DNA of 64,000 nucleotides from the IMG/VR virus record IMGVR_UViG_3300032282_004772; one strand, written 5' to 3'. The notes under the pieces were generated by a model. The model was not told where the DNA came from. It saw only the letters and a list, made by a program, of their open reading frames with translations, and did no database searches. Source of the stretch: a virus. Shown here in pieces: positions 215 through 62,651 of the stretch; the first letter of the stretch is position 1; each line of letters begins with the position of its first letter. Position numbers and translations under genes: made by a program.

Positions 215-439
215 ATGAAAAATCTATTGTCTATCGTAATTGTAATTTGTTTTATGACCTCTTGTGCTCCAAAAGTAGTTCAACTAACCGATGGAAGAAT
301 GATTACAAAGAAAAAAGAGACAAGGATGATTCATAAAGCGATGAAAACCGCGTATAAAAGTTTGTCAAAAGACCAAAAACAACTTTTATTTGAAGATGTT
401 AATATTACTGTTGATACGCTTCATGTATCAGGAAATTAA
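215..439 (+). CDS. small lipoprotein
   Basis: MKNLLSIVIVICFMTSC lipobox signal; start moved to ATG 215, downstream of the promoter. Confidence 0.65.
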   Translation: MKNLLSIVIVICFMTSCAPKVVQLTDGRMITKKKETRMIHKAMKTAYKSLSKDQKQLLFEDVNITVDTLHVSGN

Positions 440-1662
440 ATTAATTTGAATATTTCGTCTTTCTTAACTCTAGTTGATTGTTTATTAAAGTAAAAGTCAA
501 TTGGCATTAAAGCTTTAAGAGACCCATCATTATTTTTTATTACTTTCTTTTTCTCAATAAGATAATTAATATATCCATCTAAAGTTCCTGTACCTGTTGT
601 AGAGTAGTATTTTATTTGTTTTATACTCCCTGTTGTTCCACTTGTGGTTCCACTTGTAGTTTGTCCTGCGGCATTTGGTTCTTCATCACCGGCATTCGCC
701 TTTTCTGTTCCTTTTAGTATTGGGTTTCCGCATGGGTCTAAAACTAAAATAACTTTAGGTCCGTGTTCACCTCTATCCGCTCTAATTTCAGGGGTACATC
801 CATCATATAAAACAGTACTTCCTTTTGATACTTTAACCCTTGGAGTACTAGAATGGCAATCACCTTCTTTATTTTGACAAACTGTTATTATTTCAATGTT
901 TCTTGGGGTTTCTCCTATAACTTGCTTTGCCAATTCATTACTAACTTGTAATGGACCACTTGTTCTTGCACCGCCATCTTTCTTGTTGTTTAAATTTGCG
1001 ATACCAATTTTTGTTTGATTTAAATATACATCAAATAGGGCCGCATCACAAATATGTCGTTTACCACAAAGTTGTTTTGGGTCATAATAAACCTCAATTG
1101 TTAGTCCAACAATACATTCTGCGGGCGCTTGTATTTTTAATTCGACCTTAACAAATCTTTCTGTACTATATTGTTGTGATTTTGTAGGGTCATTCAAATC
1201 TTGAGGTCCCTTATATTCTGTTTGTCCTATTACAATCTCAGGAGCTTCGAATATTGGCATCTTGTCAATGTTTTTATTTGTAATCAAAGTTTCAAAATAT
1301 TTTGACAAATATTGTTTCATAGTCTCAGCTCGTTTTTGAGACAAATATCCTTGACCTACTTGTACTTTTGGTGATACTTCAGTATCATAATTTGTAACCT
1401 GTGATTCTCCTGCGGTTATTTTAATATAAACCACACTACCTTTATTTGCAATTAAAAATCTTGCGGCATTTTCAAGTTGTGGATTTATTTCATTTAATCC
1501 TTGTTGTGATATACTTTTCCATTTACCATTATCAAAAAAAGTTTGTCCTTGTATGGTTATTTCTTGTCGAGCCCCAGTAGGTTCATCTTCTTTTAATAAC
1601 CCATACATAGAAAGAATATCATTTCTTTCCTCTTCAGTTATTAAAAATCTTTTATTTTTCAT
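436..1662 (-). CDS. probable virion protein with OmpA-C-like domain and N-terminal leader
   Basis: LITEEERNDILSMY leader; FFDNG...LSQKRAETMKQYL...ERFVKV resembles the OmpA-like peptidoglycan-binding fold. Confidence 0.55.
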   Translation of the reverse strand: MKNKRFLITEEERNDILSMYGLLKEDEPTGARQEITIQGQTFFDNGKWKSISQQGLNEINPQLENAARFLIANKGSVVYIKITAGESQVTNYDTEVSPKVQVGQGYLSQKRAETMKQYLSKYFETLITNKNIDKMPIFEAPEIVIGQTEYKGPQDLNDPTKSQQYSTERFVKVELKIQAPAECIVGLTIEVYYDPKQLCGKRHICDAALFDVYLNQTKIGIANLNNKKDGGARTSGPLQVSNELAKQVIGETPRNIEIITVCQNKEGDCHSSTPRVKVSKGSTVLYDGCTPEIRADRGEHGPKVILVLDPCGNPILKGTEKANAGDEEPNAAGQTTSGTTSGTTGSIKQIKYYSTTGTGTLDGYINYLIEKKKVIKNNDGSLKALMPIDFYFNKQSTRVKKDEIFKLI

Positions 1663-1671
1663 CACTTAATA

Positions 1672-1679
1672 TATAAATA
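1672..1679 (-). promoter_or_regulatory. putative phage late promoter TATTTATA
   Basis: Octamer recurs on the sense strand shortly upstream of >20 starts, e.g. 5249, 6441, 11551, 15562, 24171, 24464, 27918, 30171, 36937, 40152, 48730, 55179, 57248, 62311, 62655 (-) and 19714, 31855, 32663, 40791, 48993, 53125, 59189 (+). Confidence 0.75.
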
Positions 1680-1700
1680 TCAAGATTTATTAAAATACGT

Positions 1701-1733
1701 AAAAAAAAAAGGAGACAATTTCTTGTCTCCTTT
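1701..1733 (-). terminator. intrinsic terminator after the major capsid gene
   Basis: AAAGGAGACAA-tttc-TTGTCTCCTTT hairpin followed by a U tract on the minus strand. Confidence 0.85.
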
Positions 1734-1753
1734 GTTATGATTTTAAGAATTAA

Positions 1754-3574
1754 TTATCTTAACTCTCTTAAATCGAATGTACGAACACCGTCCACTTGAA
1801 TACGTCCATAGAACCTGTTGTTCACCATTTTCTTAGCGTATCTAGTCATGATACCTTTGATTGGTGTAAAGTTAAATGGATTGTACATTGTAGGTGTTAA
1901 TTGTAGAGGTACATACGGAGCGTAGATGTAACCTGTGTCTAACAATGACGTACCTTTGTGTCCCATTAACACTGTGTTAGGTGGGAAATAAGGGTCACGA
2001 TAAACTTGGTAACGACCAGCTAAAGTACCTACTCTCTCAATACCCATGTTGTATTGGTCTTGCTCAGGTGAAGCGTTAGAAACGTGGAAGTATTCTAAGT
2101 CATCAAAGATAGCACTAATTTCAGATGATACAACAATCCAGTTAGCTCCACCACGAAGTGTTGACTTGTGAATTTGAGCAGATACTTGGTTGATTGCAGT
2201 AATCAATGTCTGATTCCAATCCTTCTGAGTATAAGAAGTTGTTTGAGATAATCTCTTCCATCCGTTGTAATCCCAACGTAATGTCCAAGCTGCACCTTTA
2301 CGTAAGTCACGTAAAATTTCACGGTCGATTTCAGCCGCCACTTGTTCAGACAATAAAGCCGTTAATTCAGCCTCAGCGTCGATGTTGTGGAATGCCGCAA
2401 CGTCCTGTGCTAATTCAGGTGACCATTGTGCTCTAAGTTTTCTTTCTGTAACAGAAACTGTTACTGACTCAAGGTCAAAAGAAACCTCACCAATTTTATC
2501 TTCAAACTCAAGTTCTTCATAACGTCTGTAAACAGCCGTGAAAGAACCTGTAGTTGCTACCGATGTTACACTTGTTCCAGTGTATCCGTCTAAAGAATCT
2601 GCTCCACAAGAAGCACATACAGGACACTGTAAATCTACTTCAAGGTAGATACATCCATCAGCTCCACAGATGTCGTAGAATTTACCACCATTTCCTGTAG
2701 AAGCGAAGTTAGTTTGATTCCATTGTCCATACTGAACAATACCTTTACCATATTGTTGTGTAACAACACGGAAAGGAAGTGCCGATGCAGTAAGGTCAGT
2801 ACATCCTGTTGCTGCATCTAATCCTGATGCCGCAATGATATAAAGGTCAGAAAGAAAAGCTTCAGAATCCATTTCATTACCGTCAGGTCCGATTAATTTA
2901 CCAGCACCTGTGTCAGCAAATCCACACATTTTGATAAGGATTTTTCTTACGTTTTTACCATCATATTCACCATCAGCATCAACTAATGAACCACCACTCC
3001 AAACCATAACAGTTGTATCAGAAGTGATAGCTGACCAACGACCTTTTGAATAATCAAAAAGACCTGCTGGGTCTAATGTAGGTTCAGCACCTTCATAGAA
3101 TAAATCATAAAGATTTTTCTTGTAATAGTTAGAACCACCGCCTGCAGGATATCCAGCATCTGGGTCTCCAGGGTAGTTACCAGGAGAACCTACAGGAGCG
3201 TAATGTTCACCTGAATAGTAAGTGTCAGCACTTACATAACCTTGGATACGTGGAACGAAGTAGAACAATTTACCGATAGGTAAGTTCATAGCTTGTACCG
3301 ATACGATATCGTTAGCTAAAAGTTTAGAGAATACCCTTCTTACGATAGGGAAAACTACTGTTTCAAACGAACCAGATGAATCTGTCGCTGAAGCTTCGTT
3401 GATTAAGAACGATGCTTGGTTTTCATATAACTGAGCAATGTTCTCTTTTAAGTGACCTTTAAGACCCTCAAGGAATCCTAATCTGTCCCATTTGTTAATT
3501 GTGTCTTCTTTGATAACCTTAAGGTGTTTCAAACCTATATTACCAACAAGACCGCTTTCTAATAATGCACCCAT
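1754..3574 (-). CDS. major capsid protein, T4 gp23-like
   Basis: RKLRAQWSPELAQDV...DAEAELTALLSEQVAAEIDREI, YAPYVPL, GIMTRY motifs; VSVQAMNLPIG. Confidence 0.97.
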   Translation of the reverse strand: MGALLESGLVGNIGLKHLKVIKEDTINKWDRLGFLEGLKGHLKENIAQLYENQASFLINEASATDSSGSFETVVFPIVRRVFSKLLANDIVSVQAMNLPIGKLFYFVPRIQGYVSADTYYSGEHYAPVGSPGNYPGDPDAGYPAGGGSNYYKKNLYDLFYEGAEPTLDPAGLFDYSKGRWSAITSDTTVMVWSGGSLVDADGEYDGKNVRKILIKMCGFADTGAGKLIGPDGNEMDSEAFLSDLYIIAASGLDAATGCTDLTASALPFRVVTQQYGKGIVQYGQWNQTNFASTGNGGKFYDICGADGCIYLEVDLQCPVCASCGADSLDGYTGTSVTSVATTGSFTAVYRRYEELEFEDKIGEVSFDLESVTVSVTERKLRAQWSPELAQDVAAFHNIDAEAELTALLSEQVAAEIDREILRDLRKGAAWTLRWDYNGWKRLSQTTSYTQKDWNQTLITAINQVSAQIHKSTLRGGANWIVVSSEISAIFDDLEYFHVSNASPEQDQYNMGIERVGTLAGRYQVYRDPYFPPNTVLMGHKGTSLLDTGYIYAPYVPLQLTPTMYNPFNFTPIKGIMTRYAKKMVNNRFYGRIQVDGVRTFDLRELR

Positions 3575-3597
3575 TGTGTATTTTTTTTTAGTTTAGT

Positions 3598-5229
3598 TTA
3601 TTTAATCATTTTAGACATTAAGTCTTTCATTCTCATGAATTGAGGATTTTCGTATGTTTTTGACTCAATTAAATTAGCAGCTGAACCTGAAGATGGAGTT
3701 CTTTCCATTTTTTCTTGAAGTGACTCCTTCACTACAGTTGCACTGCCCTGAGATGATAACTCGTCTTTTATTGTTTTGTAAAGAGATTTAGACTCTTTTA
3801 AAGATTCAACCGAATCAAATCTTCTTAAGATGTTGATTTTTTCTTGCTTAGTTGTAGAATGTTCAGTAAACAATCTTGTTGCATATGCAAGATTTGAGTT
3901 AAATACCGCAACTTCAGTCAATTTATCTCTGAAAACATTTAATGCTTTTCTATATTCCTCATTTCTTTCTCTTAGAATATTTAATTCATTATCAACATTT
4001 TCAACACGTAAATGACGTGGAGCTGCTTTTGGTTTTGGTAAACCTTTCTTTCCAAAGAATTTGCCTGAACCTAGAGTTCTTGAAGCCTCAGCAGTTTCAC
4101 CACCTTTTTTAACTGGTTTCATTGTCATTTTCTTAACCTCTTTGTATTCGAATTTTGGTTTACCCATTCCAACACCTTTTGGTTTAATAGACTTCATTCC
4201 TTCTTTAGTTTCAATCTTTTTGGATTCTGTGGTTTCTTTTTCAGTAACTCCGTGTTTTAAAGTTTTAGGATATACCTTTTTAGGTTTACCCATTCCAACA
4301 CCTTTTGGTTTGAATCCTTCTTTTGTTTCAAATTTTATCGCTTCGGCGACCCTTGACCACGTTTCGTCCATGTCTTCATCCATTTCTTCGTCCATGTCTT
4401 CATCCATTTCTTCGTCCATGTCTTCATCCATTTCTTCGTCCATATCTTCGTCCATATCTTCACCTAATTCGATTTCATAAACGATTTCGTCATCGTCAAA
4501 CATTTCGTTATCATCATCGGATGTGAAAATATCAGAGAAATCAACTGTCTCTCTGCTCCAAGGTTTCATTTTTTTAGAGTCTTTGCCTAAAGGTTCGTCA
4601 CCATCTTCATAATATTGTTCATCCATGTCTTCTTCTAATTCAGAATTTTCCATGTACTCTTCTAAACCTTCTTCAGTTGGTTCAGAATCATTAGCAAGAC
4701 CACCCTCAGCAGAAGGTAGACTTTCGCCCAATGAAATTTTATAATGAACATCTTCATTTTCATCGTCTAAATCGATTGTGTCTCCGTCTTTTGTAACAAT
4801 GATTCCGTCCTCATCTTTCATTCGTTTGAAAACTTTTAATACTTCTTCAGGAGAAGCATTTCTCAAATCAACATAAGAATCGTCATCATCAGACATCATA
4901 CCCATATCTGACATATCCATGTCAGACATATCGGACAAATCATCTTCATCATCGGATGGTAATTCATCATCTGTATCCTCTAAATCAGTATCCTCTAAGT
5001 CTTCGTCACCGATTTCGGTTTCGTCCTCATCTTCTTCAAGAGAGTTATAAGAGTTATCCAATTCAAGGTCAGAATCTTCTTCAGTTTCAGTCAATGACTC
5101 TTTTACTAGTTCGCCGATTTCTTCCTTCATAGTTGAAGCAAGTATTCCTTTTGCATTTTCAGCAACTACTGTTTCCAAACTTTTCATTTGGATTAGTGCC
5201 TCTTCTACAAGATTTTGTTTTTCTGCCAT
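3598..5229 (-). CDS. prohead core scaffold protein, gp22-like
   Basis: Acidic and coiled-coil, many L/I-x-E sites, between protease and capsid genes as in T4. Confidence 0.8.
   Translation of the reverse strand: MAEKQNLVEEALIQMKSLETVVAENAKGILASTMKEEIGELVKESLTETEEDSDLELDNSYNSLEEDEDETEIGDEDLEDTDLEDTDDELPSDDEDDLSDMSDMDMSDMGMMSDDDDSYVDLRNASPEEVLKVFKRMKDEDGIIVTKDGDTIDLDDENEDVHYKISLGESLPSAEGGLANDSEPTEEGLEEYMENSELEEDMDEQYYEDGDEPLGKDSKKMKPWSRETVDFSDIFTSDDDNEMFDDDEIVYEIELGEDMDEDMDEEMDEDMDEEMDEDMDEEMDEDMDETWSRVAEAIKFETKEGFKPKGVGMGKPKKVYPKTLKHGVTEKETTESKKIETKEGMKSIKPKGVGMGKPKFEYKEVKKMTMKPVKKGGETAEASRTLGSGKFFGKKGLPKPKAAPRHLRVENVDNELNILRERNEEYRKALNVFRDKLTEVAVFNSNLAYATRLFTEHSTTKQEKINILRRFDSVESLKESKSLYKTIKDELSSQGSATVVKESLQEKMERTPSSGSAANLIESKTYENPQFMRMKDLMSKMIK
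4363..4461 (-). repeat. 24-bp tandem repeat encoding (DEEMDEDM)n in the scaffold
   Basis: ttcgtccatgtcttcatccatttc repeated three times plus degenerate 12-bp copies. Confidence 0.9.
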
Positions 5230-5701: not shown

Positions 5702-6430
5702 TTATTTACCTAAATAATCAGTTAATCTTTTCATTAAGTCAACGGACTTATCTATCGACTTAGATTCCATACCTGTTGTACGAGACATTTTAAATTTATT
5801 TTCTTCTTCTAAATTCTCATCATATTTTACTCTGTCATCAGGATTTAAAAACAAATAAGCACCAGGAGTAGACGGAGAAGAAACCAAGTCAAAACAAATT
5901 AACTCAAAATCATCCTGTACTTCATTTTGGTCGCCTTTTTTCGCTAAAGAACCAACACCTCTTGAAGATATACCTAATGTAACTCCTTGTCTTAAATAGT
6001 TCGCAGCCATATCACCTTTACATGATATAACACCTCTTTCATGAAACCCTGGTGAAGTTAAAAGTTTTAATTTTCCCATTAAAACATTTCCTTCCCACCA
6101 TACGTCTGTAATAACATGAGAAACTCTATCCAAATCAATCAATGAAGATTCAGGGTGATTTAATTCGGATAGAGCGGTTCCTTTCTTTATTGCATTTTTA
6201 TAATTTTCCGCCTCTCTTTTTAATATTTTTTCAGGGTATACCCTTCCATTTCTATTTGGAGTATTATATTTTTGTAGAACTGCGTAAAACTCAAATGGTT
6301 TTGAGTAATCTAAAAAATTTTTAGATTCTTTAATTACTTTAGAATTTAATTCATCGTTTGGTGATACATACCCTGCATCCCATTCAATTAACAAACCTTT
6401 TCCTATATCGTTTGGACCTAGTATATTCAT
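5702..6430 (-). CDS. prohead core protease, T4 gp21-like
   Basis: NRNGRVY, ALSELNHP, LGISSRGVGS, FDLVSSPSTPGA. Confidence 0.95.
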   Translation of the reverse strand: MNILGPNDIGKGLLIEWDAGYVSPNDELNSKVIKESKNFLDYSKPFEFYAVLQKYNTPNRNGRVYPEKILKREAENYKNAIKKGTALSELNHPESSLIDLDRVSHVITDVWWEGNVLMGKLKLLTSPGFHERGVISCKGDMAANYLRQGVTLGISSRGVGSLAKKGDQNEVQDDFELICFDLVSSPSTPGAYLFLNPDDRVKYDENLEEENKFKMSRTTGMESKSIDKSVDLMKRLTDYLGK

Positions 6431-6480: not shown

Positions 6481-6921
6481 TTAAACGATTTGTTTTTTTG
6501 TTAATGAAAATGTGAAATTTTGGTTTCCTCTAAATATATTTTTTACGACACCTGTGGTTATTTTTTTTATTGATGATTTAATTTCCTTTGACTTAAAATC
6601 TAATTTTGGATTCTTTACATAAAAATAGCATTCCAAATTTAAAAATGATTTTTTTCCTTTTTGTATCCCACTAGACCTTAAATCCAAATCTACTATAAAA
6701 TTTTCATCAAAAATTTCTTTATCTATATAATCTAAAATTGATATTTTTATTAATCTTGATAAATTATTTACAACTCTATTTGCGTTCTCTATTTCGTGTT
6801 TTGGCTCTGCCCAAGTTTGTATATTTAAATAAATTGATTTTAAATTTTTGGAATCGACTGTTCCATAATTAACTTTGTAAGTGCGATATCCTGATAGTTT
6901 CGAGCTCTTCCCTTTTTTCAT
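6481..6921 (-). CDS. hypothetical protein
   Basis: 146-aa ORF inside the head module. Confidence 0.7.
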   Translation of the reverse strand: MKKGKSSKLSGYRTYKVNYGTVDSKNLKSIYLNIQTWAEPKHEIENANRVVNNLSRLIKISILDYIDKEIFDENFIVDLDLRSSGIQKGKKSFLNLECYFYVKNPKLDFKSKEIKSSIKKITTGVVKNIFRGNQNFTFSLTKKQIV

Positions 6922-7919: not shown

Positions 7920-9743
7920 TCAACTTCTGAGTATTTTATTCAATTGTTCTTCCATATCGCCTAAAGAAGTTCTTGCTTTTGATAAATCGATATAAGAATC
8001 CTCTTCTAACATATCGTTAGACTCTAATAAAATATTCAAATCTCTCTTTGAAATTGACTCAGGGGTTACTCCCGCTTCACCTCCTGGAGGGGTTTCTCCT
8101 CCCGCTGGCGGGGTAGGACCTGAAGATGTTGGTGTTGCACCTGCAGGCTCACTTTCTCCTCCAACTGAGGTTTCTCCACCCGTTGTGCCTGATGTACTTC
8201 CATATAGTTTATCTATATTTGCAAATATTCCTGTTTTTTGAATAACATTAGGAGTATTCTCAAGTTCTTTAGCAACCGCTCTTTCTATTCTTTGTTGTTG
8301 TAAATCAAGTTTAATTTCTTCATCAGAAAATCCTAAAACATGTTTTTTAGCCCACGATGTAGATACAGGTGCGATTCCTTCAATTGCGGTAACTGCGTCT
8401 TTGTATAATAATATTTTTTCTTTCCAAACGTCAACTTTTAATAAATCTGCCTGAGTTGAAGGATTTGTTAATGATAATGTAAAGTTTGATAGTTCATCCT
8501 CAAATCCTAATAAGAATAAATGAATGATGGCAATCTTATTTAATTCTGCCAACATACTTTTTTGAATTCTATTTATAGTTCTTGCAAATCTAATATCTTG
8601 TAATGATAAATTTTTTCCATCTCCGGTTGTTTCTTCAAAACCTAAAAACGCCTTTGGTACTCTTAACGCGGTTAATAATTTCTTTTGAATGTATTCTATA
8701 TCGGCAATCTCAGATAAATTTTGAGCGCCAGGAAGAGTATCAATTGGGTTTGGTTGTGCCGGGTCTCTAACGGGAACAAAGTAGTCTTGGTCTACCGCCA
8801 TTTGATTAAACCTCAAATCAACATTACCTGTTTTATTGTCAACAACTTGGTCTCTCTTAAATTTATTTGCAACACGTTGTACATACGCTTCAACATCTTT
8901 GTCGTCCATATTTCCAACAAACACTTTAAAGATTCTTCTTTCAGGAGCTCTTGATGTTCTATAAATCAACATGGCGTCTTCCGAGAGTAACAATTGTTTC
9001 CAAATTCTTCTCGCCTTTTCTAGCATTGAAGTTCCATATGGAAGTTTTCTATCATCACCTAACAAACGGAAATGAGCGATTTCCCATGTGTTAAAATCCA
9101 TATCTCTATTTTTCCACGCAAATTTTAACGCCTTTTGTTCGGATTCATTTTTTTCCATATTGGTTTTACCCTTCATTCCTCTCTCAATCCTTTCTATCTC
9201 AATGTTAGGTAATTGCATACATCCGACAACACCTTTTTCAGGGTCTAATTTTAAGTAGACAAAGTTGTCACCATATTTACAAGTATTTCTTGTCCACATG
9301 GCTAAATTTGTATTAATATCTAATGAATTATTAAATAAGTCAGTTAAAACTGATTTAATACGTTTTGACTCTGAATATATCTGTAAAATATAACCATTTT
9401 GGTCTGCCGTTGTTGATTCCTCTGCGTATATATCCAAAGCAGCTGAAATCTCAGGAGTATATTCCATAGATTCATAATCATAATAAGATGCCAATCTTGT
9501 TGGCTCAAAATAAACACCTTGGGTATATAGATTATTTTCTACTTTAGTCCATTGATTCGCTAAATAAAAGGTTTGTTGAGCCTGTAATTTGGACTTTTCA
9601 TACTCTTGTTTGTTTGTGGTTTTAAGTAACTCTTTTCTATCGTATTTAAAAACAGGATAATCTTGTCCGAGTAAAGAATTTGGGCCAAAAGTTTGCGATA
9701 ACCTTTGCCAAATCGTTAAATTATTTTTATTATCTTCAGCCAT
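7920..9743 (-). CDS. portal protein, T4 gp20-like
   Basis: PEISAALDIYAEE, LSEDAMLIYRTSRAPERRIFKVFVGNM, DYFVPVR, IDTLPGAQNL. Confidence 0.95.
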   Translation of the reverse strand: MAEDNKNNLTIWQRLSQTFGPNSLLGQDYPVFKYDRKELLKTTNKQEYEKSKLQAQQTFYLANQWTKVENNLYTQGVYFEPTRLASYYDYESMEYTPEISAALDIYAEESTTADQNGYILQIYSESKRIKSVLTDLFNNSLDINTNLAMWTRNTCKYGDNFVYLKLDPEKGVVGCMQLPNIEIERIERGMKGKTNMEKNESEQKALKFAWKNRDMDFNTWEIAHFRLLGDDRKLPYGTSMLEKARRIWKQLLLSEDAMLIYRTSRAPERRIFKVFVGNMDDKDVEAYVQRVANKFKRDQVVDNKTGNVDLRFNQMAVDQDYFVPVRDPAQPNPIDTLPGAQNLSEIADIEYIQKKLLTALRVPKAFLGFEETTGDGKNLSLQDIRFARTINRIQKSMLAELNKIAIIHLFLLGFEDELSNFTLSLTNPSTQADLLKVDVWKEKILLYKDAVTAIEGIAPVSTSWAKKHVLGFSDEEIKLDLQQQRIERAVAKELENTPNVIQKTGIFANIDKLYGSTSGTTGGETSVGGESEPAGATPTSSGPTPPAGGETPPGGEAGVTPESISKRDLNILLESNDMLEEDSYIDLSKARTSLGDMEEQLNKILRS

Positions 9744-9779: not shown

Positions 9780-11549
9780 TTATCTTGGTTTTCCGAATAA
9801 CCATAAATACTTTTGGTAATCACTTTTTGTTGATTCATTTTGTGTTGATATGTTTCTTGTTATTCCCGCTGGTAATACAGGGTTAAAACCTATATTTTTT
9901 GAAACATTTTCATTATTATTTACCTGCCAAGAATCAATCATTGCTTTAGTTTGTTCAGTGACTTTATTTAATTGAGTAAACGAATTTTCCCCAACATAAA
10001 TCGCCATACCAATCGCCATTATTAAATCATCATGATGTCCTTTTTGGTGGTCAGGTCTTCCATTAATATAAATAAAAGTATTCATCTCATTAAACAATCT
10101 ATTACTATAGATTTTAAATCCATGTCTCATTGCTTCTTCAAATGAAGAAATAATCTGAACTCTTTTATTATTAAAATTTATACCCGGTATTTTATCTAAC
10201 GCTTTTGCATCATATTTCCATTTATTTCCTAACTCAATTCCATCGACATATAAGTTTTTATACCCCATCTCTTGTAGTTTTCTTGATGTGGAAACCCCCA
10301 TTCCTCCTGTTATATCAACAACAATAAATGAATTATACATCATACCCCACTTGTATGCGACCTCTGCCGCAACATCAGGAGGGATTTTACCGACATATTC
10401 GGCAACCTGTTCTCTCTCATCAAAATCCACAATAATAAAAGACGTAAAGTCTTCAGAATCCCCTCTTGAAACATCGACTCCCATAATGTATTTGTGACCC
10501 GGTATTGGCTCTTTCCAAATCCATAATGAACCTCCCATCATTTTATTAACGGGTTCTTTTAACATATTATGATGTATAGACTGTAATTGTTTTGAATCAA
10601 AAACATTATCTCCCGAACCTAAAAAATTACACTCCAACTCTTGAGAAACTTTTCGTTTATCAAACTTTAATTTTTTAACCATCCCCTCAAACCAAGATGA
10701 AGTTGGTTTATATCCGTTTGCAATATGGTTTTTTATTTCATCAAAATTTCTTTCTCTTGGGTTAGTGTCGGCATAGTCTATGGTCTCAATGACACCATAA
10801 TCTTCTCGATTAAGATAATAATGAATCAAATCTTCAACTTTAATTAATTTTAAATCTTTTGTATATCTAGGGTCTTTAAACCAATAAAATTCAGATATTT
10901 TAAATTCATTCATACCTCTTAAGGCTTGGTCATATATTTCATAGTAGATTGGGTCGTATCCATTTGGAGTAGAAACAACAATAACTTTACCTCCTGTTGA
11001 TAATGATGCCATACATGCTGACCAAAAATCACTATCGGCCTCAATATAGGCAGCCTCATCAAAAATTAATATTGTTGGAGTATATCCTCGTAAAGCATCT
11101 TTAGATGTTGCAACGGCTTTTACTTCACATCCATTACTTAATTTATAATGTCTTTGTGAGTTTTTTTCTTTTGAAAATTCTACACCAGTCCAAGATGGCC
11201 ATTGTTCAGTAAATCCTCTTATTTTATTAGCCATCTCAACTGCCGTGTCTAATTTGTTGGCAATAATCAATATTTTTTCAGGTTTCTTTTTTGACGCAAA
11301 AACTATTTTCTTTGATGCCCAAGCCGCGGTTACGGTTGATACTCCCGCTTGTCGGTATTTCAATGCAATGTTTTCATTGTATTTTTCGTAATCTTCCAAT
11401 AGATTAATTTGGTCATCAAAAAGGTCTAACGGAACATATCTTGATACTAAGTTGTCATATGTTTGCAAGTATGTTCTAAGAGCATATGGCGTATTTAATA
11501 TACATTTTTTATACTCTAATATTAATTGTTCTTTAGTTAAGCTCATCAT
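9780..11549 (-). CDS. terL: terminase large subunit, T4 gp17-like
   Basis: KYRQAGVST Walker A, LIFDEAA Walker B, STPNG, GVDVSRG and HDDLIMA nuclease motifs. Confidence 0.95.
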   Translation of the reverse strand: MMSLTKEQLILEYKKCILNTPYALRTYLQTYDNLVSRYVPLDLFDDQINLLEDYEKYNENIALKYRQAGVSTVTAAWASKKIVFASKKKPEKILIIANKLDTAVEMANKIRGFTEQWPSWTGVEFSKEKNSQRHYKLSNGCEVKAVATSKDALRGYTPTILIFDEAAYIEADSDFWSACMASLSTGGKVIVVSTPNGYDPIYYEIYDQALRGMNEFKISEFYWFKDPRYTKDLKLIKVEDLIHYYLNREDYGVIETIDYADTNPRERNFDEIKNHIANGYKPTSSWFEGMVKKLKFDKRKVSQELECNFLGSGDNVFDSKQLQSIHHNMLKEPVNKMMGGSLWIWKEPIPGHKYIMGVDVSRGDSEDFTSFIIVDFDEREQVAEYVGKIPPDVAAEVAYKWGMMYNSFIVVDITGGMGVSTSRKLQEMGYKNLYVDGIELGNKWKYDAKALDKIPGINFNNKRVQIISSFEEAMRHGFKIYSNRLFNEMNTFIYINGRPDHQKGHHDDLIMAIGMAIYVGENSFTQLNKVTEQTKAMIDSWQVNNNENVSKNIGFNPVLPAGITRNISTQNESTKSDYQKYLWLFGKPR

Positions 11550-35524: not shown

Positions 35525-36919
35525 TTATTCTCTCCAAAATCCATCAGATTCTTTTTTAATTGTTCCTGTCGAGGAACCATTATCGTAATCGTATTTTACT
35601 GTTTTATTTGCCGAATCATAATCTGTAAATTTCAGCTTATCAAGTTGACTCTGACTGAATTTTAAATCTCTTCCATTTGAATCTTTTTGTCTTAAATTTC
35701 TTCTAATATCATCCGTAACATCTTGTGGGACAGGATTAACTACACCTCCAGGGGACTGAGTTGTGGTAGTAGTTGTTGCACCTCCAGACGACTGAGTTGT
35801 GGTAGTAGTTGTTGAAGGCTCATCATTTACTTCACCTCTAAATTTTTCAACGGATTGTTTTATAGTCTTTATTGATGCACCGACTCTAAATCCTAAAAAT
35901 TGGAAAATTGCATATACCGTAGGGAATACCGTATCTAAAGTAGTTGCCCACATAAGAAATTGTACAGTACTTGATATTAATAAATCTATACCAATCCACC
36001 AAAGCGCTTTACCGGCAAATCCTAAATTTTCAAACATAAAATCTTTAATATTTGATATTCTATCAGTAATCTTTGTAATTTGAGCATCTGTTGCACCTTC
36101 TTTTTTTAACGATGTACGAACCGCTTGTGCTAAAGCTGTTTTCATTTCTGCCGGAGTTGTTAGATTTGCCTTTTCCATCAATCTAACAATTTTTCTTGCC
36201 TTGCTACCTTTAACACCATTTAACTCTAATTGAGCTAAAATTTCTTTTTTATTAAAAACAAATTTTCCGTTATTTTTTGATTCGTTTTCTCTGACTGCGT
36301 TTTGTATTATATTACCTATCTCATTTGCTTCTTCAGTGGAATTAACCGAAAGTTCGTCACCAATTTTTTCACCTATCTCACTAGATGTTGGTTTACCAAT
36401 CTGTTCCAAATCTCTTTCAACTCCTTTTTCAACAGTAAGACCGTATTCTCTCATAGCCAACGCTTCTTCTCTACTTATAAGGTCAGGAACAATTCCTCTA
36501 TCCTCTAAGGCAGTAATAACTTCTTCTGTTGATTTATTTGAATTACTAATAAATCCTTTTATTTTATCATAAAGACCCGGTTTTGATTCTAATTTACTTT
36601 GTAAAAACATGAATCCTTCTTCCGCGGTCGCTTTCATTTCACTAGGGAAAAGTTTATTGAAAATTTGGGTAATAAATTCGGATTCTTTAGTTGTTAACGA
36701 TTCGGCTCCTTTTGATGCTATTTCGCTCATTTTTTCCGCCAATTCATCTGCGTTTCTTACACCAGTGGCTCTCAATTTCTCTAAAACATCATCTAAAGAT
36801 GTTCCTGTTTTTTCTAAAAATTCAGTAACTTGTTCAGAGATTAATGGTTTAAATTGGATACCCATTATCTCAGATAATCTAGATAACTCTTCATTAATTA
36901 TTTTATGATTTTTTTTCAT
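35525..36919 (-). CDS. helical protein with TM segments and leader, probable internal/ejection protein
   Basis: IINEELSRLSEIMG...LISE leader, hydrophobic hairpin, Thr-rich linker. Confidence 0.65.
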   Translation of the reverse strand: MKKNHKIINEELSRLSEIMGIQFKPLISEQVTEFLEKTGTSLDDVLEKLRATGVRNADELAEKMSEIASKGAESLTTKESEFITQIFNKLFPSEMKATAEEGFMFLQSKLESKPGLYDKIKGFISNSNKSTEEVITALEDRGIVPDLISREEALAMREYGLTVEKGVERDLEQIGKPTSSEIGEKIGDELSVNSTEEANEIGNIIQNAVRENESKNNGKFVFNKKEILAQLELNGVKGSKARKIVRLMEKANLTTPAEMKTALAQAVRTSLKKEGATDAQITKITDRISNIKDFMFENLGFAGKALWWIGIDLLISSTVQFLMWATTLDTVFPTVYAIFQFLGFRVGASIKTIKQSVEKFRGEVNDEPSTTTTTTQSSGGATTTTTTQSPGGVVNPVPQDVTDDIRRNLRQKDSNGRDLKFSQSQLDKLKFTDYDSANKTVKYDYDNGSSTGTIKKESDGFWRE

Positions 36920-46963: not shown

Positions 46964-48061
46964 ATGGATAAATTATTAAAAGAAATTCATAAGATAAGAG
47001 GTATTATTACTTCTTCTGTGTTAACTGAGTCATCTACTGATGATTATATAAAAACAATTAAAGATATTTTAAATTTTAATAACATGTATACGCCTAATAT
47101 TGAAAAAAATTTAGGTGATATTATTAAAATGTCTGAAAGAAAAATTATAGATTTTGATTTGTTAACAAGAGGACTAAAAAAAGTGTTATTAAAAAAAGGT
47201 AATAAAAAGAAGAATGTTGAATCTTATTTTGATTCTGTAATTAATTCTTTGAGAAAAAGAGAAGAGGGGGATTATAATGTGGAACCGGAAAGTGATGATT
47301 ATAGTTTTGAACCTGAAGAACCTTCTATTGTACCAAAAAAAGTTTTTAGAAAAGAACTTTATGGGTTACAAATTGAATTATTAAAATTAGAAGAATGGTT
47401 AATGAAAACAGGAAAAACTGTTATAATTGTTTTTGAAGGAAGGGATAGTGCCGGAAAAGGAAGTACCATTAAAAAATTCACAGAAAATATGAATCCAAGA
47501 GGTTACAAGGTCATAGCTTTAGGTGTCCCAACTCCTGAAGAAAGACAAAATTGGTGGAAAAGATACCAATCGCAAATAGAACCTGGTAAGATTAACCTTT
47601 TTGATAGAAGTTGGTATAATAGAGGTTTAGTTGAGCCTGTTATGGGATATGGTTCAGAAGAAGAATACAATGATTTCATGGAAAATGTTGAGAATTTCGA
47701 AAACTCTTTAGTAGAAAATGGCGATTTCTTATTTAAACTTTGGTTTTCAATAGACAAAGAAACTCAAGCAAAAAGATTTGAGATGAGACAAAAATCACCA
47801 TTAAAATATTGGAAATATTCTCCAAATGACGCTAAAATGCAAGACCTTTGGGATAGGTTTACCGAATTTAAAGAAAAGTTGTTTGATAAAACGTCAACTT
47901 TAAATCATCCTTGGGTAATAATAGACGCTGTAGATAAAAGAGTATCAGGATTAAATGCAATAAGATATATCTTACAAAGGATACCTTATGAAAATAAGAA
48001 TGAATCTTTTTTAAATAGAGATTATCCTGAAGCAATAACAGTATTAAAACCTGAAAAATAA
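46964..48061 (+). CDS. ppk2: polyphosphate kinase 2 with N-terminal extension
   Basis: FEGRDSAGKGSTI, FDRSWYNR, WKYSPND. Confidence 0.92.
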   Translation: MDKLLKEIHKIRGIITSSVLTESSTDDYIKTIKDILNFNNMYTPNIEKNLGDIIKMSERKIIDFDLLTRGLKKVLLKKGNKKKNVESYFDSVINSLRKREEGDYNVEPESDDYSFEPEEPSIVPKKVFRKELYGLQIELLKLEEWLMKTGKTVIIVFEGRDSAGKGSTIKKFTENMNPRGYKVIALGVPTPEERQNWWKRYQSQIEPGKINLFDRSWYNRGLVEPVMGYGSEEEYNDFMENVENFENSLVENGDFLFKLWFSIDKETQAKRFEMRQKSPLKYWKYSPNDAKMQDLWDRFTEFKEKLFDKTSTLNHPWVIIDAVDKRVSGLNAIRYILQRIPYENKNESFLNRDYPEAITVLKPEK

Positions 48062-48718
48062 TTAAGCAGTTTCTATTTTTGGAGGATTTGGTGTCGCCCC
48101 TTTTTCGTACGAGTCAACAACTTTAGCCACAAGTCTTCCAGTTCCCCATGTTTCTAATTCACTAAAATTACTAGCAATAGTACTTGCGGGTACATCTCCT
48201 TTTCTTAATTGACTTAATATTGTTGAATAGTATTGTAATTTTAATGTCTCACATGTGGCATCAATACCATCTTGTCTTGAATTATAATTTCTAACACCTG
48301 AAACACAATTACCGCTTGAATCTCTTTTTAAACAATTATAAAATGTTGTATTATCTTTTAATTTTGTAGTATTAAATGGATTGTATTTTGCTTTAGCCCC
48401 TTCAGATTGTCTCCAAGCATAAAAAAACTCCATATTACTTTTAGTTTTTGGCGCACCTATGCAACTTAAGATATCTTCATAAAACTCATCGTCTGTAGTT
48501 GAGATACCTTTGATTTCTTTTTTATCTCCATCGTGTTTTTCATCATCCCCCGACATTATCCCCTTAAAAAAATCTTTAACTTTTTCAACAGGCTTACTTT
48601 TCCAAGCTGATTTTAAATAATCAGTAATGTCATCAATAATGCCTTCATTTAAATTTTGTTTGGAAACTTCTTTAAATCTTTTTATTTCTTCCAAAATTTC
48701 TTTTTCTTTATTATTCAT
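48062..48718 (-). CDS. lysozyme-like virion-associated lysin
   Basis: W.Q.EG....YNPFNTT...GVRNY....G..AT...L; ILEEIKRF...LNE leader. Confidence 0.6.
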   Translation of the reverse strand: MNNKEKEILEEIKRFKEVSKQNLNEGIIDDITDYLKSAWKSKPVEKVKDFFKGIMSGDDEKHDGDKKEIKGISTTDDEFYEDILSCIGAPKTKSNMEFFYAWRQSEGAKAKYNPFNTTKLKDNTTFYNCLKRDSSGNCVSGVRNYNSRQDGIDATCETLKLQYYSTILSQLRKGDVPASTIASNFSELETWGTGRLVAKVVDSYEKGATPNPPKIETA

Positions 48719-49012: not shown

Positions 49013-49636
49013 ATGACACATATTAAAAATTTAATTAGAGATATCTTACGTGAAGAAACTTCTAAAAACATGTTATTAAATAAAAAAGTTGATGTTTCAG
49101 AATCATTAAAATACCATTTGGATAATGGTTTATCACTAACTGAAAATATTTTCAGGATATACTCAAAATCATATTTTAACTTAGTAAATGAAGTAAGAGA
49201 ATTATATCAAAATGGTTTAATATCCTTAAATGATGATGATAAAGCTCTTGTTGAGTCTGATTTGGGTAGAACCGCAGAATTATCAGATGGGACTATAGTT
49301 TATTTAGACGCTCCAATATATGAACAAGACCAAGATGAATTGATGCTTGAGGCAAAACATCATGGTAAAAATGTAAAGTTAAATAGTCCCTTTAGAACAC
49401 CAGGAGGTCCTAAAAAATTTGCAGTATATGTTAAAACTCCAAGAGGTAGTATTAAAAAAGTCACATTTGGTGACCCAAATCTTAGAGTTAGAAACGCAAA
49501 TAAAGCCAGAGCTAAATCATTCCGAGCTCGTCACAAATGTGACCAAAAAACCGATAGGACCACCGCAGGATATTGGAGTTGTAATGTTGCAAGATATGCT
49601 AAAAAGTTAGGACTTAAATCTTCAAGAACTTGGTAA
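49013..49636 (+). CDS. hypothetical protein with basic C-terminal domain (DUF6321-like)
   Basis: RTPGGPKKFAVYVK...FGDPN...SFRARHKC...AGYWSC. Confidence 0.65.
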   Translation: MTHIKNLIRDILREETSKNMLLNKKVDVSESLKYHLDNGLSLTENIFRIYSKSYFNLVNEVRELYQNGLISLNDDDKALVESDLGRTAELSDGTIVYLDAPIYEQDQDELMLEAKHHGKNVKLNSPFRTPGGPKKFAVYVKTPRGSIKKVTFGDPNLRVRNANKARAKSFRARHKCDQKTDRTTAGYWSCNVARYAKKLGLKSSRTW

Positions 49637-53846: not shown

Positions 53847-55142
53847 TCACTTATTAATTAAATCAACAAATCGATTAAATCCATCATTTGTTTTATGTAG
53901 TTGATATAATTTTGCACTAGGGTTTACATTATAAAAAATAGAAAGTCTTGGTCTTTTTGCATACCCAATTGTGTTCCAATAAAATACAATATCCTCTTTC
54001 CTTACAAATATGTTGTCTTTAAATATCATTCCTGACATGTCTTTTATAAGATGATTTATAATATTTTTACCATCACCTTTATTCATAGTATGATATAAAT
54101 TCATAACCATGGCTTCCAAAAAGAGTTTTAAAGTTTCTGAAGGATTTACAACATTGGGTATTTTTGATATTGCGTCTAATAATAAGTTATAATTTTTATC
54201 AGTACTATCTATTTTAAAAAACTCGGATATAAAGTCAGGTGTTTTATATAGTTTGTGTTTAACTTCAACGTATGAATTGACACTTCCAATATAATTTACT
54301 TTTTTTGTTGCTCTATCTTCATAAACTAAAGCTTCTTTTAATTTTAAGTCCGCCTTTATATTATCTTCAGAATAATTAAAATATATGTCAAAATTTAAAT
54401 TTAACATTACGTTTTTTATGAAATCATTGGCGGAAGAATAAAACTTTGCCTTTGACATTGTTTGTATCAGATACAATACTTTTGATATATCAGATTTTTG
54501 TGAATTAAATTCATCTTTAGATATTGTCATCTTGTTATAGATAAAATCACTAGCCAATGACACTGATATTTCAGGTATTGTTTGGTGAACTAAAAATGGA
54601 CTAAGAGGACCTTCGGCAAAAGATTTTTGATATTCATCATAAACCTTTTTAGTTTCTCTATAAAAAGAATCTAAGTCAATAGGAGCAACCCCTGTCAAAA
54701 TACTTATTAACTTTTTTTTGTATTTTTCTTCAAATCTCTTGTCTTCAAAAATAGAAATAATTTGTTCTATTTGTTCTTTTGCGACATTAATATCTTTTTT
54801 AACTAAATTATCTATTATTTGGGATAGTTTTTTTAATGAAAATGACCCCTTTTTGTAGATGGAAATTAGTTCCGCAATCTTTATAAAATATTTTTCAAAG
54901 ACATCTTTATCTTCTAACTTTTCAATGTCAGATAATAAACCTGAAATATCTTTTCCTAATTTTCTAGATTTGCTGGTTTCAGAGTGCTGATAACCAATAG
55001 TTTTTACTTTATTTTTAAAATCTTTTAAAGAATCCACACTAGAAAGATTAACATCTTGGTCTAATCTAATTTCAGAATCATCTTCAAATAGTAATTTTGA
55101 GAGTATGTTTTTATATTGTTCTAGTGTTAAAACTAATTTCAT
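53847..55142 (-). CDS. hypothetical protein with leader (possible PD-(D/E)xK fold)
   Basis: LVLTLEQY...LLFE leader; KADL...VEVK. Confidence 0.65.
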   Translation of the reverse strand: MKLVLTLEQYKNILSKLLFEDDSEIRLDQDVNLSSVDSLKDFKNKVKTIGYQHSETSKSRKLGKDISGLLSDIEKLEDKDVFEKYFIKIAELISIYKKGSFSLKKLSQIIDNLVKKDINVAKEQIEQIISIFEDKRFEEKYKKKLISILTGVAPIDLDSFYRETKKVYDEYQKSFAEGPLSPFLVHQTIPEISVSLASDFIYNKMTISKDEFNSQKSDISKVLYLIQTMSKAKFYSSANDFIKNVMLNLNFDIYFNYSEDNIKADLKLKEALVYEDRATKKVNYIGSVNSYVEVKHKLYKTPDFISEFFKIDSTDKNYNLLLDAISKIPNVVNPSETLKLFLEAMVMNLYHTMNKGDGKNIINHLIKDMSGMIFKDNIFVRKEDIVFYWNTIGYAKRPRLSIFYNVNPSAKLYQLHKTNDGFNRFVDLINK

Positions 55143-56218: not shown

Positions 56219-57232
56219 TTATTCAAATTTAATATGTACATATTCCCCCAAAGGACCTGCGGCCTTTAAAATATAAGGAGCACTCGCCAATTCAGGAATT
56301 GCATTTTTTAGTTCATTATATGTATTAACCGCCTTGGCTTTACATAGTTGTAAATTACCTGTACCGTCATCGTTATTTCCTATTACCATATCATCATAAT
56401 CTAAAACTTCAGACCATTTAGATTTGTTTGAATCATTATCAACATATCCTGCCGGCATTTTAGAAGTGGAGGAGTTTACAGTAAACTTATTTATTTTACC
56501 CCCATCTGAGATAAACTTTTTTATTGTATCGATAAAAGATGCCTGATGTACATTGTGTGGAATAGCACTATTTTCAGCAAAAAAATCACCAATATTATAA
56601 GTCTTTGGTAATTTTAACATGTTTTGTGAGATTCCAAAATCTTTCAATGATATTGGTTGTCCGTGCATTGCAACTTCTAACCTTATACCATATTCTTTTC
56701 CCATCTTAAATGCCGACTGTTGGAAATATATTTTATTTCCCGGCTTTGCATCAATAACATTTATTTTACCTTCAACTCCGTCAGGGAATTCTGTTCCAAC
56801 AACAAATCCACCAAGAGTTGGTGCCATATATTTTTGTGAATAAAATATTATTGGCATCATACTACCAAAATTAACTATGGCTTCATTTTTTCCATATATG
56901 TGTTTACCATAATTTATGGCGTTTTTCATTTTTGGGTCAAAATTAAGTCCTGAAAGTTCTGTTCCTTTAATATTTTCATCATCAACTTCTTGAGTTTTTT
57001 GTGTCCATTCTGCAGATATCTCTTTTGTTGATGGAAATTCTACTGACATATTTGGGCTAAGTTCTCCTGTTGATTTGTCGGCCAAACACATTCTACCATT
57101 ATCAACATAAAAATAAAATCCACCAAGAGCAAAATATTCACCAGTGTGAGTCACCGGTTCTTCACTTTCAACGACAACTCGTTTTATAATTCTTCTTAAA
57201 TCAGACTCGTTTAATTTTATAATTTTTTTCAT
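56219..57232 (-). CDS. probable virion protein with leader and OmpA-C-like C-terminus
   Basis: IIKLNESDLRRIIKRVVVE; FFAENS...GNLQLCKAKA. Confidence 0.6.
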   Translation of the reverse strand: MKKIIKLNESDLRRIIKRVVVESEEPVTHTGEYFALGGFYFYVDNGRMCLADKSTGELSPNMSVEFPSTKEISAEWTQKTQEVDDENIKGTELSGLNFDPKMKNAINYGKHIYGKNEAIVNFGSMMPIIFYSQKYMAPTLGGFVVGTEFPDGVEGKINVIDAKPGNKIYFQQSAFKMGKEYGIRLEVAMHGQPISLKDFGISQNMLKLPKTYNIGDFFAENSAIPHNVHQASFIDTIKKFISDGGKINKFTVNSSTSKMPAGYVDNDSNKSKWSEVLDYDDMVIGNNDDGTGNLQLCKAKAVNTYNELKNAIPELASAPYILKAAGPLGEYVHIKFE

Positions 57233-59171: not shown

Positions 59172-59219
59172 TTTTGTTTAAGGACAACTATTTATAGAAA
59201 ACCTTAAAATTTTTGTAAA

Positions 59220-61165: not shown

Positions 61166-61188
61166 AAAAAATACTCTAATTTTTAACA

Positions 61189-61215
61189 AAAAACCCCTAT
61201 TTTAGGGGTTTTTTT
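61189..61215. terminator. bidirectional terminator
   Basis: AAAAACCCCTA-ttt-TAGGGGTTTTT between convergent genes. Confidence 0.85.
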
Positions 61216-61433
61216 TATCTATTATTCAAAGTCTTGAATAAATTTCCAATAAGTTTCATAGAATCTTCCATTTGTTTTGAGTCATTAATTACAGGGTATT
61301 TACCCATAAATGGATTATTTTGAGATAATTTTATTATATTTTTACCATATTTTTTCCAAAAAAGTATAATACATACTAAAAAAGATAATAAAATTAAACA
61401 AAGAACCGTTAGAATAAAATTTAAATAAATCAT
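61215..61433 (-). CDS. small membrane-anchored protein
   Basis: N-terminal TM. Confidence 0.65.
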   Translation of the reverse strand: MIYLNFILTVLCLILLSFLVCIILFWKKYGKNIIKLSQNNPFMGKYPVINDSKQMEDSMKLIGNLFKTLNNR

Positions 61434-61503
61434 TTTTTTTATTTTAAAATTAAAATAAAAAATTTAAATAATCAATATTATACTATTAATTTCCTGACGA
61501 ACC

Positions 61504-62301
61504 TCACTGTCCTGCAACTCCACTTTGTCCCGCAATTCCACTTTGTCCATAATAAGTGCTCGAATTAATTATATTAGGGAACGCACTTTTTACTTGGGCT
61601 TGTCGTTCAGGATTTCTATTTGCATATATAAATCCTTGTCCGTATTTTTCCCAAGCGTCTTTAACATCTTGTGTGAATTTATTAGTTGCATCTGAAAAAG
61701 TTATGTTTCCACCCAATCCTATGACATAGTCTTTAAATTTTTTTATAATTTCAGGGGTGGATAATTCTGCAGGTGATTGACCTGTTAACTCTGAGCCAGG
61801 TAAATTAGGAACCACTGGTGGCAATGTATTTATGATACTTAATAATTGCGTAACTTCTGACGCTTTTTTCCATGCACCTTGTGTTGCTGCCGGACTAAAT
61901 ACGAGTACGTTTCTATCTGATTCAATATAAGGTTTTAAATCATCTATCTTATCTACTTTTTTATACCCACTAGTTTCGTTCTTATCAACGACATACCATA
62001 AATCAGATGTTCCCGACTGTAAAGTCTTTAAATAAGTGTCTTTGTTTGCATTCCAAGCTGCAGTAGTTTTAGGTCCAAAATTACCATACCCTTTTCCTGT
62101 TTTATTTAATTTTTTACCGCCACCTAACCAATCTGTATTAGCATCTAGCCAATCTTGAAATTTTTTAACACCTTCTCTATCTTTAAGTTCTGTAGGTATT
62201 GTTGCTTCAGATAATAATGATTTATCTTTTTCATAAAGATTTCTAATGTGATTCACATCTTCTTCTGTTATAACTAATGCTAAACTATTTTTCATATTCA
62301 T
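61504..62301 (-). CDS. probable virion protein: leader, PG-binding-like repeats, GYF_2-like domain
   Basis: VITEEDVNHIRNLY; VKKFQDWL...G.FGPKT..AW; WY...LVF....W.KASEV..L...PP. Confidence 0.6.
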   Translation of the reverse strand: MNMKNSLALVITEEDVNHIRNLYEKDKSLLSEATIPTELKDREGVKKFQDWLDANTDWLGGGKKLNKTGKGYGNFGPKTTAAWNANKDTYLKTLQSGTSDLWYVVDKNETSGYKKVDKIDDLKPYIESDRNVLVFSPAATQGAWKKASEVTQLLSIINTLPPVVPNLPGSELTGQSPAELSTPEIIKKFKDYVIGLGGNITFSDATNKFTQDVKDAWEKYGQGFIYANRNPERQAQVKSAFPNIINSSTYYGQSGIAGQSGVAGQ

Positions 62302-62330
62302 TTTTATTTATATAAATATTATTGTTTTGA

Positions 62331-62651
62331 TTAATATTCTACTCGACATATGTCTAAGTATTTTTTTATAGTCCTTCTAATAACTTCTTTATCAACATCT
62401 TTAAATTCATCCTCCATACAATTAAAAATGGCTCCAACCAAATATTTTTTACTATCATCTAAATTTTTAGATTTTCCGCAAATAAATATATGTCTAAATT
62501 TAAGTTGAGGTAAATTCCCAAAATCCATGTCAGTGACATATGTACTAACAGGAAAATGTCTTTTAAGATAATTTAATACCCTGTTATCCGTATTTCCTGA
62601 ATACTTGTTAAATAACTCTTCCTTTTGTTGTTCAGTTATTATTATTTTCAT
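62331..62651 (-). CDS. hypothetical protein with MKIIITEQQ leader
   Basis: 106-aa ORF, TATTTATA upstream. Confidence 0.7.
   Translation of the reverse strand: MKIIITEQQKEELFNKYSGNTDNRVLNYLKRHFPVSTYVTDMDFGNLPQLKFRHIFICGKSKNLDDSKKYLVGAIFNCMEDEFKDVDKEVIRRTIKKYLDICRVEY

Follow-up and report, generated by a model that had tools for sequence, protein, structure and literature searches.

A 64-kb stretch of viral DNA, IMG/VR record IMGVR_UViG_3300032282_004772 (the whole stretch is hereafter called the window), has a G+C content of about 30% and carries a head module of T4 type on its minus strand, together with genes for unrelated proteins that begin with a few recurring short leaders. The original prediction, drawn from the letters of the window by themselves, listed 15 such genes as one family of leaders ending in [IL]-x-E and proposed that the leader is a modular tag by which diverse proteins are packaged into the phage head. 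The 15 listed start positions all exist, and their translations match those described. Sequence comparison with other contigs indicates that three leader types, LTESDL, ITEEEK and MKIIITE, are real, strictly N-terminal and portable peptide families. The reading preferred here, with slightly better than even confidence, is that these leaders are capsid-targeting propeptides cut by the head protease of uncultured T4-like jumbo phages. Leaders and head genes of the window are collected in Table 1.

Table 1. Leaders and head-module features of the window (HMM, hidden Markov model; foreign-only, built from sequences outside the window)
Feature	Position	Strand	Evidence or remark
LTESDL-type leader, residues 1-22, gene 56219-57232	57167..57232	-	45 bits against HMM from other contigs
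ITEEEK-type leader, residues 1-25, gene 436-1662, ends L-K-E	1588..1662	-	E = 7.6e-10, foreign-only HMM
ITEEEK-type leader, residues 1-24, gene 61504-62301	62230..62301	-	E = 5e-6, foreign-only HMM; sites I-T-E, L-Y-E, L-S-E
Diverged ITEEEK/MKIIITE-type leader, gene 62331-62651	62595..62651	-	window copy 1e-3 against foreign MKIIITE model
Degenerate MKIIITE-type leader, residues 1-16, ends L-T-E, gene 40803-41423	40803..40850	+	L007 orthologue
Half leader (helical second half of LTESDL type, ends L-R-E), gene 49013-49636	49013..49054	+	kept in orthologues
ITEEEK-like N-terminus, gene 39630-40136, no [IL]-x-E	40071..40136	-	pairwise score 37 with gene 436-1662
MKIIITE-like N-terminus, gene 53847-55142, ends L-F-E	55083..55142	-	weak; significant only in self-seeded model
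Private leader of PPK2 gene 46964-48061	46964..47029	+	common only to gene 48062-48718; kept in three orthologues
Leader of gene 48062-48718, resembles PPK2 leader	48644..48718	-	orthologues end [VI]-N-E
Claimed EIKRI member, unsupported	35525..36919	-	no match to any leader model
Major capsid protein, Gp23 family	1754..3574	-	Pfam 1.1e-73
Capsid protein I58-N59-E60	3395..3403	-	followed by Ala and a variable stretch; invariant in window and four relatives
Scaffold/core protein (probable), gp22 position, long poly-acidic tract	3598..5229	-	gene order and orthologues
Prohead protease, T4 gp21-type (Peptidase_S77)	5702..6430	-	Pfam 2e-23; PHROG 1.2e-43; orthologue alignment
Portal protein	7920..9743	-	Pfam Portal_T4 1.2e-78
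Large terminase	9780..11549	-	profile searches

Leader genes in the window

Taken together, the 15 N-termini do not form one family. All-versus-all local scores were at the level of shuffled N-termini and of internal-segment controls, and the set as a whole amounts to no more than a K/E/I/L-rich composition. Paralogy of the proteins was likewise rejected, the bodies behind the leaders having no paralogous relation. Five leader genes are nevertheless well supported (57232, 1662, 62301, 62651 and 40803, named here by their start positions), the last two by way of orthologues, and three more are probable and diverged (49013, 40136 and 55142).

The LTESDL-type leader of gene 57232 has an L-x-E ending at residue 9 and a V-x-E ending at residue 22, where orthologues have I-x-E. 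In thirteen orthologues the leader of 22 residues is preserved, both Glu9 and Glu22 being invariant; the linker behind it varies, and the body after the linker is conserved. In the original grouping this leader stood as an LNESDL/LIRDILRE type together with 49013, for which only a half leader, and a probable assignment, could be retained. A body homologous to that of 49013 carries a full LTESDL leader in contig L073, and the same alternation of full and half leaders was found in another body family.

Two of the three genes assigned to an ITEEE type, 1662 and 62301, are well matched by models built from foreign sequences, whereas the N-terminus of 40136 is not significant against the foreign ITEEEK model and is a probable, diverged member. 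Gene 1662 lies directly downstream of the capsid gene with TATTTATA 9 nt upstream, and neither IMG/VR nor the head region of any of four relatives yielded a relative of it. The leader of 62301 is kept in its L001 orthologue. Within the proposed II(T/K)EEQ type, 62651 and 40803 were secured through other contigs: the orthologues of 62651 in L001 and L012 have a canonical leader (E = 1.4e-5), and that of 40803 in L007 is canonical MKIIITE (26.9 bits, 3e-6), the window copy alone being not significant. The third gene, 55142, is not significant against the foreign-only model. A closing [IL]-x-E is present in 57232, 1662, 62301, 40803, 49013 and 55142, and absent from 40136 and 62651.

The proposed EIKRI type shrank to a private pair, 46964 and 48718, which 36919, 38489 and 15502 do not join. 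Its alignment is too weakly conserved for a scan of wider collections, and a model search with the PPK2-type leader matched orthologues alone. Gene 46964 encodes polyphosphate kinase 2 (PPK2; Pfam, 2.9e-72), with the PPK2 domain starting at residue 125; the 124-residue N-terminal extension ahead of the domain is conserved in three relatives. Among the cargo identities suggested earlier, PPK2 was confirmed by Pfam, while 'lysin' and 'OmpA-like' were not confirmed for window genes.

The supported leaders are closely associated with a promoter-like motif, TATTTATA, which stands in sense orientation 1-59 nt before 22 genes of the window, including those for scaffold, protease and terminase. As had been claimed, each of the eight leader genes rated supported or probable has it 3-36 nt upstream, as does 48718; the chance of eight in eight is about 3e-6 by a hypergeometric estimate from gene counts. 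The cleavage-like motif follows the same gene class instead of being equally frequent elsewhere: among the 18 non-membrane genes that have TATTTATA no more than 70 nt upstream, 12 show an [IL]-x-E with Glu at residue 4-16, as do 11 of the 53 other genes (Fisher p = 0.0008). When these late N-termini were shuffled with their composition kept, the observed count was reached with P = 0.009, and the control motifs E-x-[IL], [IL]-x-D/K/Q and [AS]-x-E showed no enrichment in N-termini behind TATTTATA. Genes behind TAnnTTTG had been said to lack leaders, and the exception is the claimed leader gene 35505, whose start sits behind a TAnnTTTG match, not TATTTATA, and which is itself unsupported.

Five starts (36919, 38489, 15502, 25001 and 35505) matched no leader HMM. 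The protein 36987-38489 has no homologue in five relatives, and in L020 the N-terminus of the homologue of gene 25001 is unlike that of the window gene; the short type proposed for 25001 and 35505 was abandoned on the lack of a model match and on this difference. For these five starts, and perhaps for 40136 and 55142, chance likeness among the K/I/L/N/E-rich N-termini of a 30% G+C genome is a fairly probable explanation. Such N-termini would form amphipathic helices in which composition is enough to produce the motif, and it accounts for [IL]-x-E in 39% of late N-termini. The explanation also agrees with a bulk N-terminal similarity at control level. Less easily accommodated are the enrichment of the motif in late N-termini beyond composition, given above, and the adjacent genes 35505 and 36919, which are alike over their first ten residues. 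In the protein 34246-35505, long low-complexity Gly/Asn/Gln and Pro-Pro-Ala repeats come directly after the first ten residues.

LTESDL leaders in other viral genomes

A metagenome scan with the leader pattern returned more than 600 stretches, of which 80 loci were kept. In 67 of the 80, the match was confined to the leader and always ran from the first Met of an open reading frame (ORF) with a different body. The N-terminal position was strict, since all 244 unique LTESDL ORFs in 1.75 Mb of loci start at Met, as do 343 of the 348 matches of an iterated LTESDL HMM. Searched by profile, 1.84 billion cluster representatives gave 7,871 matches at E ≤ 0.001 (840 at E ≤ 1e-10), and nearly all of the best 150 of these 7,871 begin at residue 1. 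Portability was equally evident: 232 complete LTESDL ORFs fell into 154 body families without a BLASTP link. At the nucleotide level, the Leu, Ser and Arg columns of the leader use all synonymous codon families. Synonymous codons thus vary freely in invariant columns, which indicates selection on the peptide rather than the DNA; a DNA-level element behind the conservation, such as a recombination site or an RNA element, was rejected on the same ground.

The proteins that carry this leader are mostly small. Their median length is 134 residues, with bodies of up to 466 residues, many of them Cys-rich, and their genes, small and mostly orphan, stand in tandem, with up to eight or nine in an array. 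Few Pfam domains were found in 80 representative tagged proteins (PG_binding_1, LysM, thioredoxin-like, Sigma70_r4 and DUF6576), and no Pfam family covers the leader in this set. Some proteins (P0018, P0020, P0023 and P0027) contain a second, internal LTESDL copy without a preceding Met. From their sequences, these proteins are read as leader-body-leader-body chains, whose modules the head protease could split. The motif TATTTAT, which resembles a late promoter, occurs within 60 nt upstream of 70% of LTESDL genes, against 31% of other genes, with a peak 15-19 nt from the ATG.

In IMG/VR, at least 496 LTESDL stretches were confirmed, with 8-16 canonical copies per genome of 200-322 kb, and the contigs come from freshwater and marine sources. 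Outside viral collections the leader is all but missing: one genome from each of 185,579 prokaryote species gave five LTESDL matches only, all on contigs of metagenome-assembled genomes (L164-L168), which are probably phage contigs binned into these assemblies. The five carry the labels Bacteroidota, Prevotella, Alphaproteobacteria and Bacilli. With the leaders as tblastn queries, 50,697 records of cultured phages gave no match, and the LTESDL leader is absent also from Flavobacterium phage immuto, the cultured relative that stands closest.

ITEEEK and MKIIITE leaders and the exchange of types

An HMM seeded with the originally proposed ITEEE group matched dozens of ORFs in those foreign loci, again with different bodies, and in 56 of 56 significant matches a Met lies no more than 9 residues upstream of the match. 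The MKIIITE type, in which MKIIITE is followed by E/S-Q, behaves like the ITEEEK type. Both HMMs were rebuilt from foreign sequences only, avoiding circularity, and their matches comprise 34 body families for ITEEEK and 23 for MKIIITE. Leader lengths are 22-27 residues.

Iterated or not, the LTESDL HMM picks up none of the other leaders of the window, and the types are linked not by profile similarity but by leader swaps on homologous bodies. Such bodies carry LTESDL leaders in some contigs and MKIIITE or ITEEEK leaders in others, and in swapped pairs the body alignment begins directly after the closing [IL]-x-E. The types therefore replace each other at the same position, as equivalent modules.

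The closing site and the head protease

In T4, the head protease gp21 cuts at (L/I)-x-E, a specificity that agrees with a published cleavage logo and 'LIE-9' site (PMC9026906). In the leaders, an [IL]-x-E ending at residue 18-32 was found in 90% of the LTESDL and 86% of the ITEEEK type, against 25% in local shuffles. Glu is invariant at P1 of this closing site, P2 is variable and P1' is mostly Gln. Because the ITEEEK family was defined without reference to the site, its closing site stands as an independent confirmation. Within the bodies tagged by LTESDL, [IL]-x-E is depleted (173 observed versus 204 expected; ratio 0.85, z = -2.7), compared with a ratio of 1.08 in untagged genes of the same loci and of 1.1-1.27 for control motifs within the tagged bodies. 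Both the window and six of seven near-complete leader-bearing genomes encode an S77 protease.

The protease of the window is the presumed leader-cutting enzyme. Close to the N-terminus of this enzyme an L-I-E is conserved between the window and four relatives; T4 gp21 likewise has an L-I-E site near its N-terminus ('LIE-9', PMC9026906). In the capsid protein of the same five genomes, the first 60 residues are invariant and end in I-N-E, and a variable segment follows directly after an Ala. The I-N-E at residue 60, with Ala behind it, is a likely propeptide cut, predicted on the ground that its position matches the 65-residue propeptide of T4 gp23 (PMC5694885). The product of 3598-5229 found no family match in Pfam or PHROG profile searches; gene order and orthologues make it the probable scaffold or core protein, and as such it is a possible docking partner for the basic helix of the leaders.

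The closest cultured relative by the capsid protein is Flavobacterium phage vB_FspM_immuto (42% identity), and the capsid gene is common to complete IMG/VR genomes of 281-322 kb, at 74-76% nucleotide identity. The capsid protein has 606 residues and is matched by the Gp23 model in two pieces, which implies an insertion of about 200 residues relative to capsid proteins of T4 size. Between the portal and protease genes, 6481-6921 and 7192-7902 encode weak paralogues (E = 8e-5), in the place that the small core proteins gp67 and gp68 occupy in T4. The slot directly after the capsid gene is variable: the tagged orphan 436-1662 fills it in the window and other genes do so in four relatives (L160-L163), several of them with signal peptides. 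In T4 the gene in this slot is gp24, and no gp24-like capsid paralogue was seen there in the window or in L160-L163. In the relative G003 (L162:2958-5735), the portal gene is about 320 residues longer than that of the window; the extra part has a Cys-led start directly after a conserved portal motif and looks like an intein insertion.

Proposed role of the leaders

Leaders of the LTESDL, ITEEEK and MKIIITE types exist, are strictly N-terminal, selected as peptides, portable, virus-specific and motif-ended, and co-occur with the protease. In each, a short hydrophobic strand would lead to an amphipathic helix capped by Thr. If they are capsid-targeting propeptides, the leader of a newly made late protein would dock it onto the scaffolding core during prohead building, and the basic face of the LTESDL helix may bind the poly-acidic scaffold protein. 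The gp21-type S77 protease would cut at the end of the closing [IL]-x-E and possibly behind the earlier [IL]-T-E as well, and the freed body would stay inside the head and be ejected with the DNA. The original proposal of a modular, motif-ended tag for the head is consistent with the protease, with the position and portability of the leaders, and with the capsid site, the LTESDL depletion and the promoter-like motif; it is weakened in that about a third of its members are unsupported and that bodies of the other two types show no depletion. Extended to a whole clade of freshwater and marine T4-like jumbo phages, the proposal would be that interconvertible address peptides of 22-27 residues load dozens of orphan proteins per genome, drawn from thousands of families and sometimes arranged as two-module chains, for injection after protease release at [IL]-x-E. 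This extension is, in our estimate, an evenly balanced matter.

Several points weigh against the propeptide reading. The support for loading and cutting is sequence-based throughout, and no cultured carriers were found. Only 41% of MKIIITE leaders close in [IL]-x-E, the motif is not depleted in ITEEEK (ratio 1.05) or MKIIITE (1.14) bodies, both small sets, and the window members 40136 and 62651 have no second [IL]-x-E site. An AlphaFold model of the 56219 protein (predicted local distance difference test score of 55) gives a hint of helix over residues 9-20 with a disordered linker behind it, and is too poor to place the leader. A bare protease site would need neither the length nor anything near the degree of conservation of the leaders, whose Thr and acidic residues could be a helix cap, in which case part of the 'site' would be structural. 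Recognisable bodies such as PG_binding_1, LysM and thioredoxin-like domains, binding or redox modules of envelope type, are typical of extracytoplasmic proteins and would also suit display on the virion or action outside the cytoplasm, and a cargo of 20-40 tagged proteins in each genome would be uncommonly large. Finally, we know of no evident sequence similarity between the leaders and the capsid targeting sequence (CTS) of T4, for which reason the leaders are called a functional analogy to it and not a homologue.

Some of the same observations would suit uncleaved docking peptides, by which small modules are attached to a common virion site (capsid surface, neck or hub) or to one shared phage partner, in the manner of the conserved N-terminal anchors on interchangeable tail fibres, with the Glu residues serving in helix capping or salt bridges. 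A strand, Thr cap and amphipathic helix conserved well past the need of a protease site would be expected of such peptides, as would recognisable bodies that are binding modules of cell-envelope type (the three domains just named), a second internal leader copy in some proteins, and ITEEEK and MKIIITE bodies without motif depletion. What docking does not predict is an invariant Glu with a variable preceding residue at the boundary of leader and body in two independently defined families, nor the depletion of [IL]-x-E in LTESDL bodies, nor the variable linker behind the leader, and we regard it as rather unlikely.

A little less probable still is a role away from the virion, in which the leader would serve as an interaction or localisation module of late proteins in the infected cell, binding, for instance, some factor of phage or host or a chaperone, or addressing the protein to a membrane or compartment. 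In its favour, membranes or nucleic acid are possible targets of a basic amphipathic helix, a Sigma70_r4 domain was found in one tagged body, PPK2 acts in the cytoplasm, and a direct link of the tags to particles is absent. Against this stand the co-occurrence of the tags with a T4-type protease whose motif the closing site fits, the tagged gene placed directly after the capsid gene, and the promoter-like motif common to tagged and head genes. Nor is the leader a Sec/Tat signal, the marks of which are a hydrophobic core of at least 10 residues (Sec) or a twin-arginine motif (Tat), being too charged and lacking a long hydrophobic run; this candidate was rejected on the column profile of the leader, which alternates charged and hydrophobic positions, and true signal peptides in the window look different. 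Leaders of ribosomally synthesised and post-translationally modified peptides, recognised by a modifying enzyme and followed by hypervariable cores, would match the tandem arrays of small genes, the conserved leader with a variable rest and the many Cys-rich bodies, but are highly improbable given bodies of up to 466 residues, some with folded domains, a leader that ends in a head-protease motif and not in a Gly-Gly type site, and arrays with no modifying enzyme seen beside them, although no systematic search for such enzymes was made.

Should loading into the head prove to be what the tags do, the injected proteins of an entire clade of uncultured giant phages could be catalogued by a simple sequence search. 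For the LTESDL tag alone the list would hold 7,871 protein clusters, a large unexplored repertoire of injected effectors. Injected proteins are the first molecules of a phage to encounter host defences, and the list could then be a natural source of anti-defence and host-takeover functions. T4 capsid targeting, known from a handful of proteins, would have been scaled up into several interchangeable address codes, and the tags could serve as new packaging tags in phage engineering.

Comparison with known systems

A literature search with the leader motif strings, with most subscription journals outside its reach, returned no relevant paper. The concept is known from the T4 CTS; its scale and form here, with interconvertible families, thousands of clusters, many copies per genome and internal copies, were without description in the literature searched.

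N-terminal anchors of tail fibres and tailspikes resemble the leaders in combining a conserved N-terminus with swappable, variable C-terminal modules. Those anchors, however, are folded, span at least 100 residues, belong to few large proteins and have no closing protease motif, whereas a leader of 22 residues stands on dozens of small orphans.

In phiKZ-like giant phages, with the proteases phiKZ gp175 and SPN3US gp245, many head proteins are processed after Glu in a three-residue motif (PMC5694885). The leaders would share with such propeptides the presence of several cut sites, and paralogues there have identical N-termini (SPN3US gp53/gp54; PMC5694885). The phiKZ-type propeptides differ in their S/A-x-E or A-x-E motifs and in often exceeding 100 residues, and no portable consensus tag has been described for them. 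The phiKZ-like phages are not close relatives of the leader-bearing clade.

For T4, Mullaney and Black are said to have described in 1996 a CTS on the internal proteins IPI, IPII, IPIII and Alt that is removed by gp21. The CTS of the internal proteins and Alt comprises 10-20 N-terminal residues and binds the scaffolding core before its removal by gp21, and in T-even phages the internal proteins are diverse, the CTS alone being conserved (PMC9026906, PMC3012670, PMC5694885). Positions 8 and 10 of the CTS, the latter being the Glu, govern processing (PMC9026906), and the internal-protein loci are variable (PMC3012670). Like the CTS, the leaders are N-terminal, short and portable and end in [IL]-x-E; the tagged proteins are similarly unrelated, fast-evolving and mostly small, and are encoded by late genes in variable loci, in phages with a gp21-type S77 protease, a gp23-type capsid and a gp20-type portal. 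Unlike the CTS, the leaders have 22-27 residues and belong to at least three interconvertible families per genome, with extreme conservation over thousands of proteins, 8-16 copies of one type in a single genome, and internal copies.

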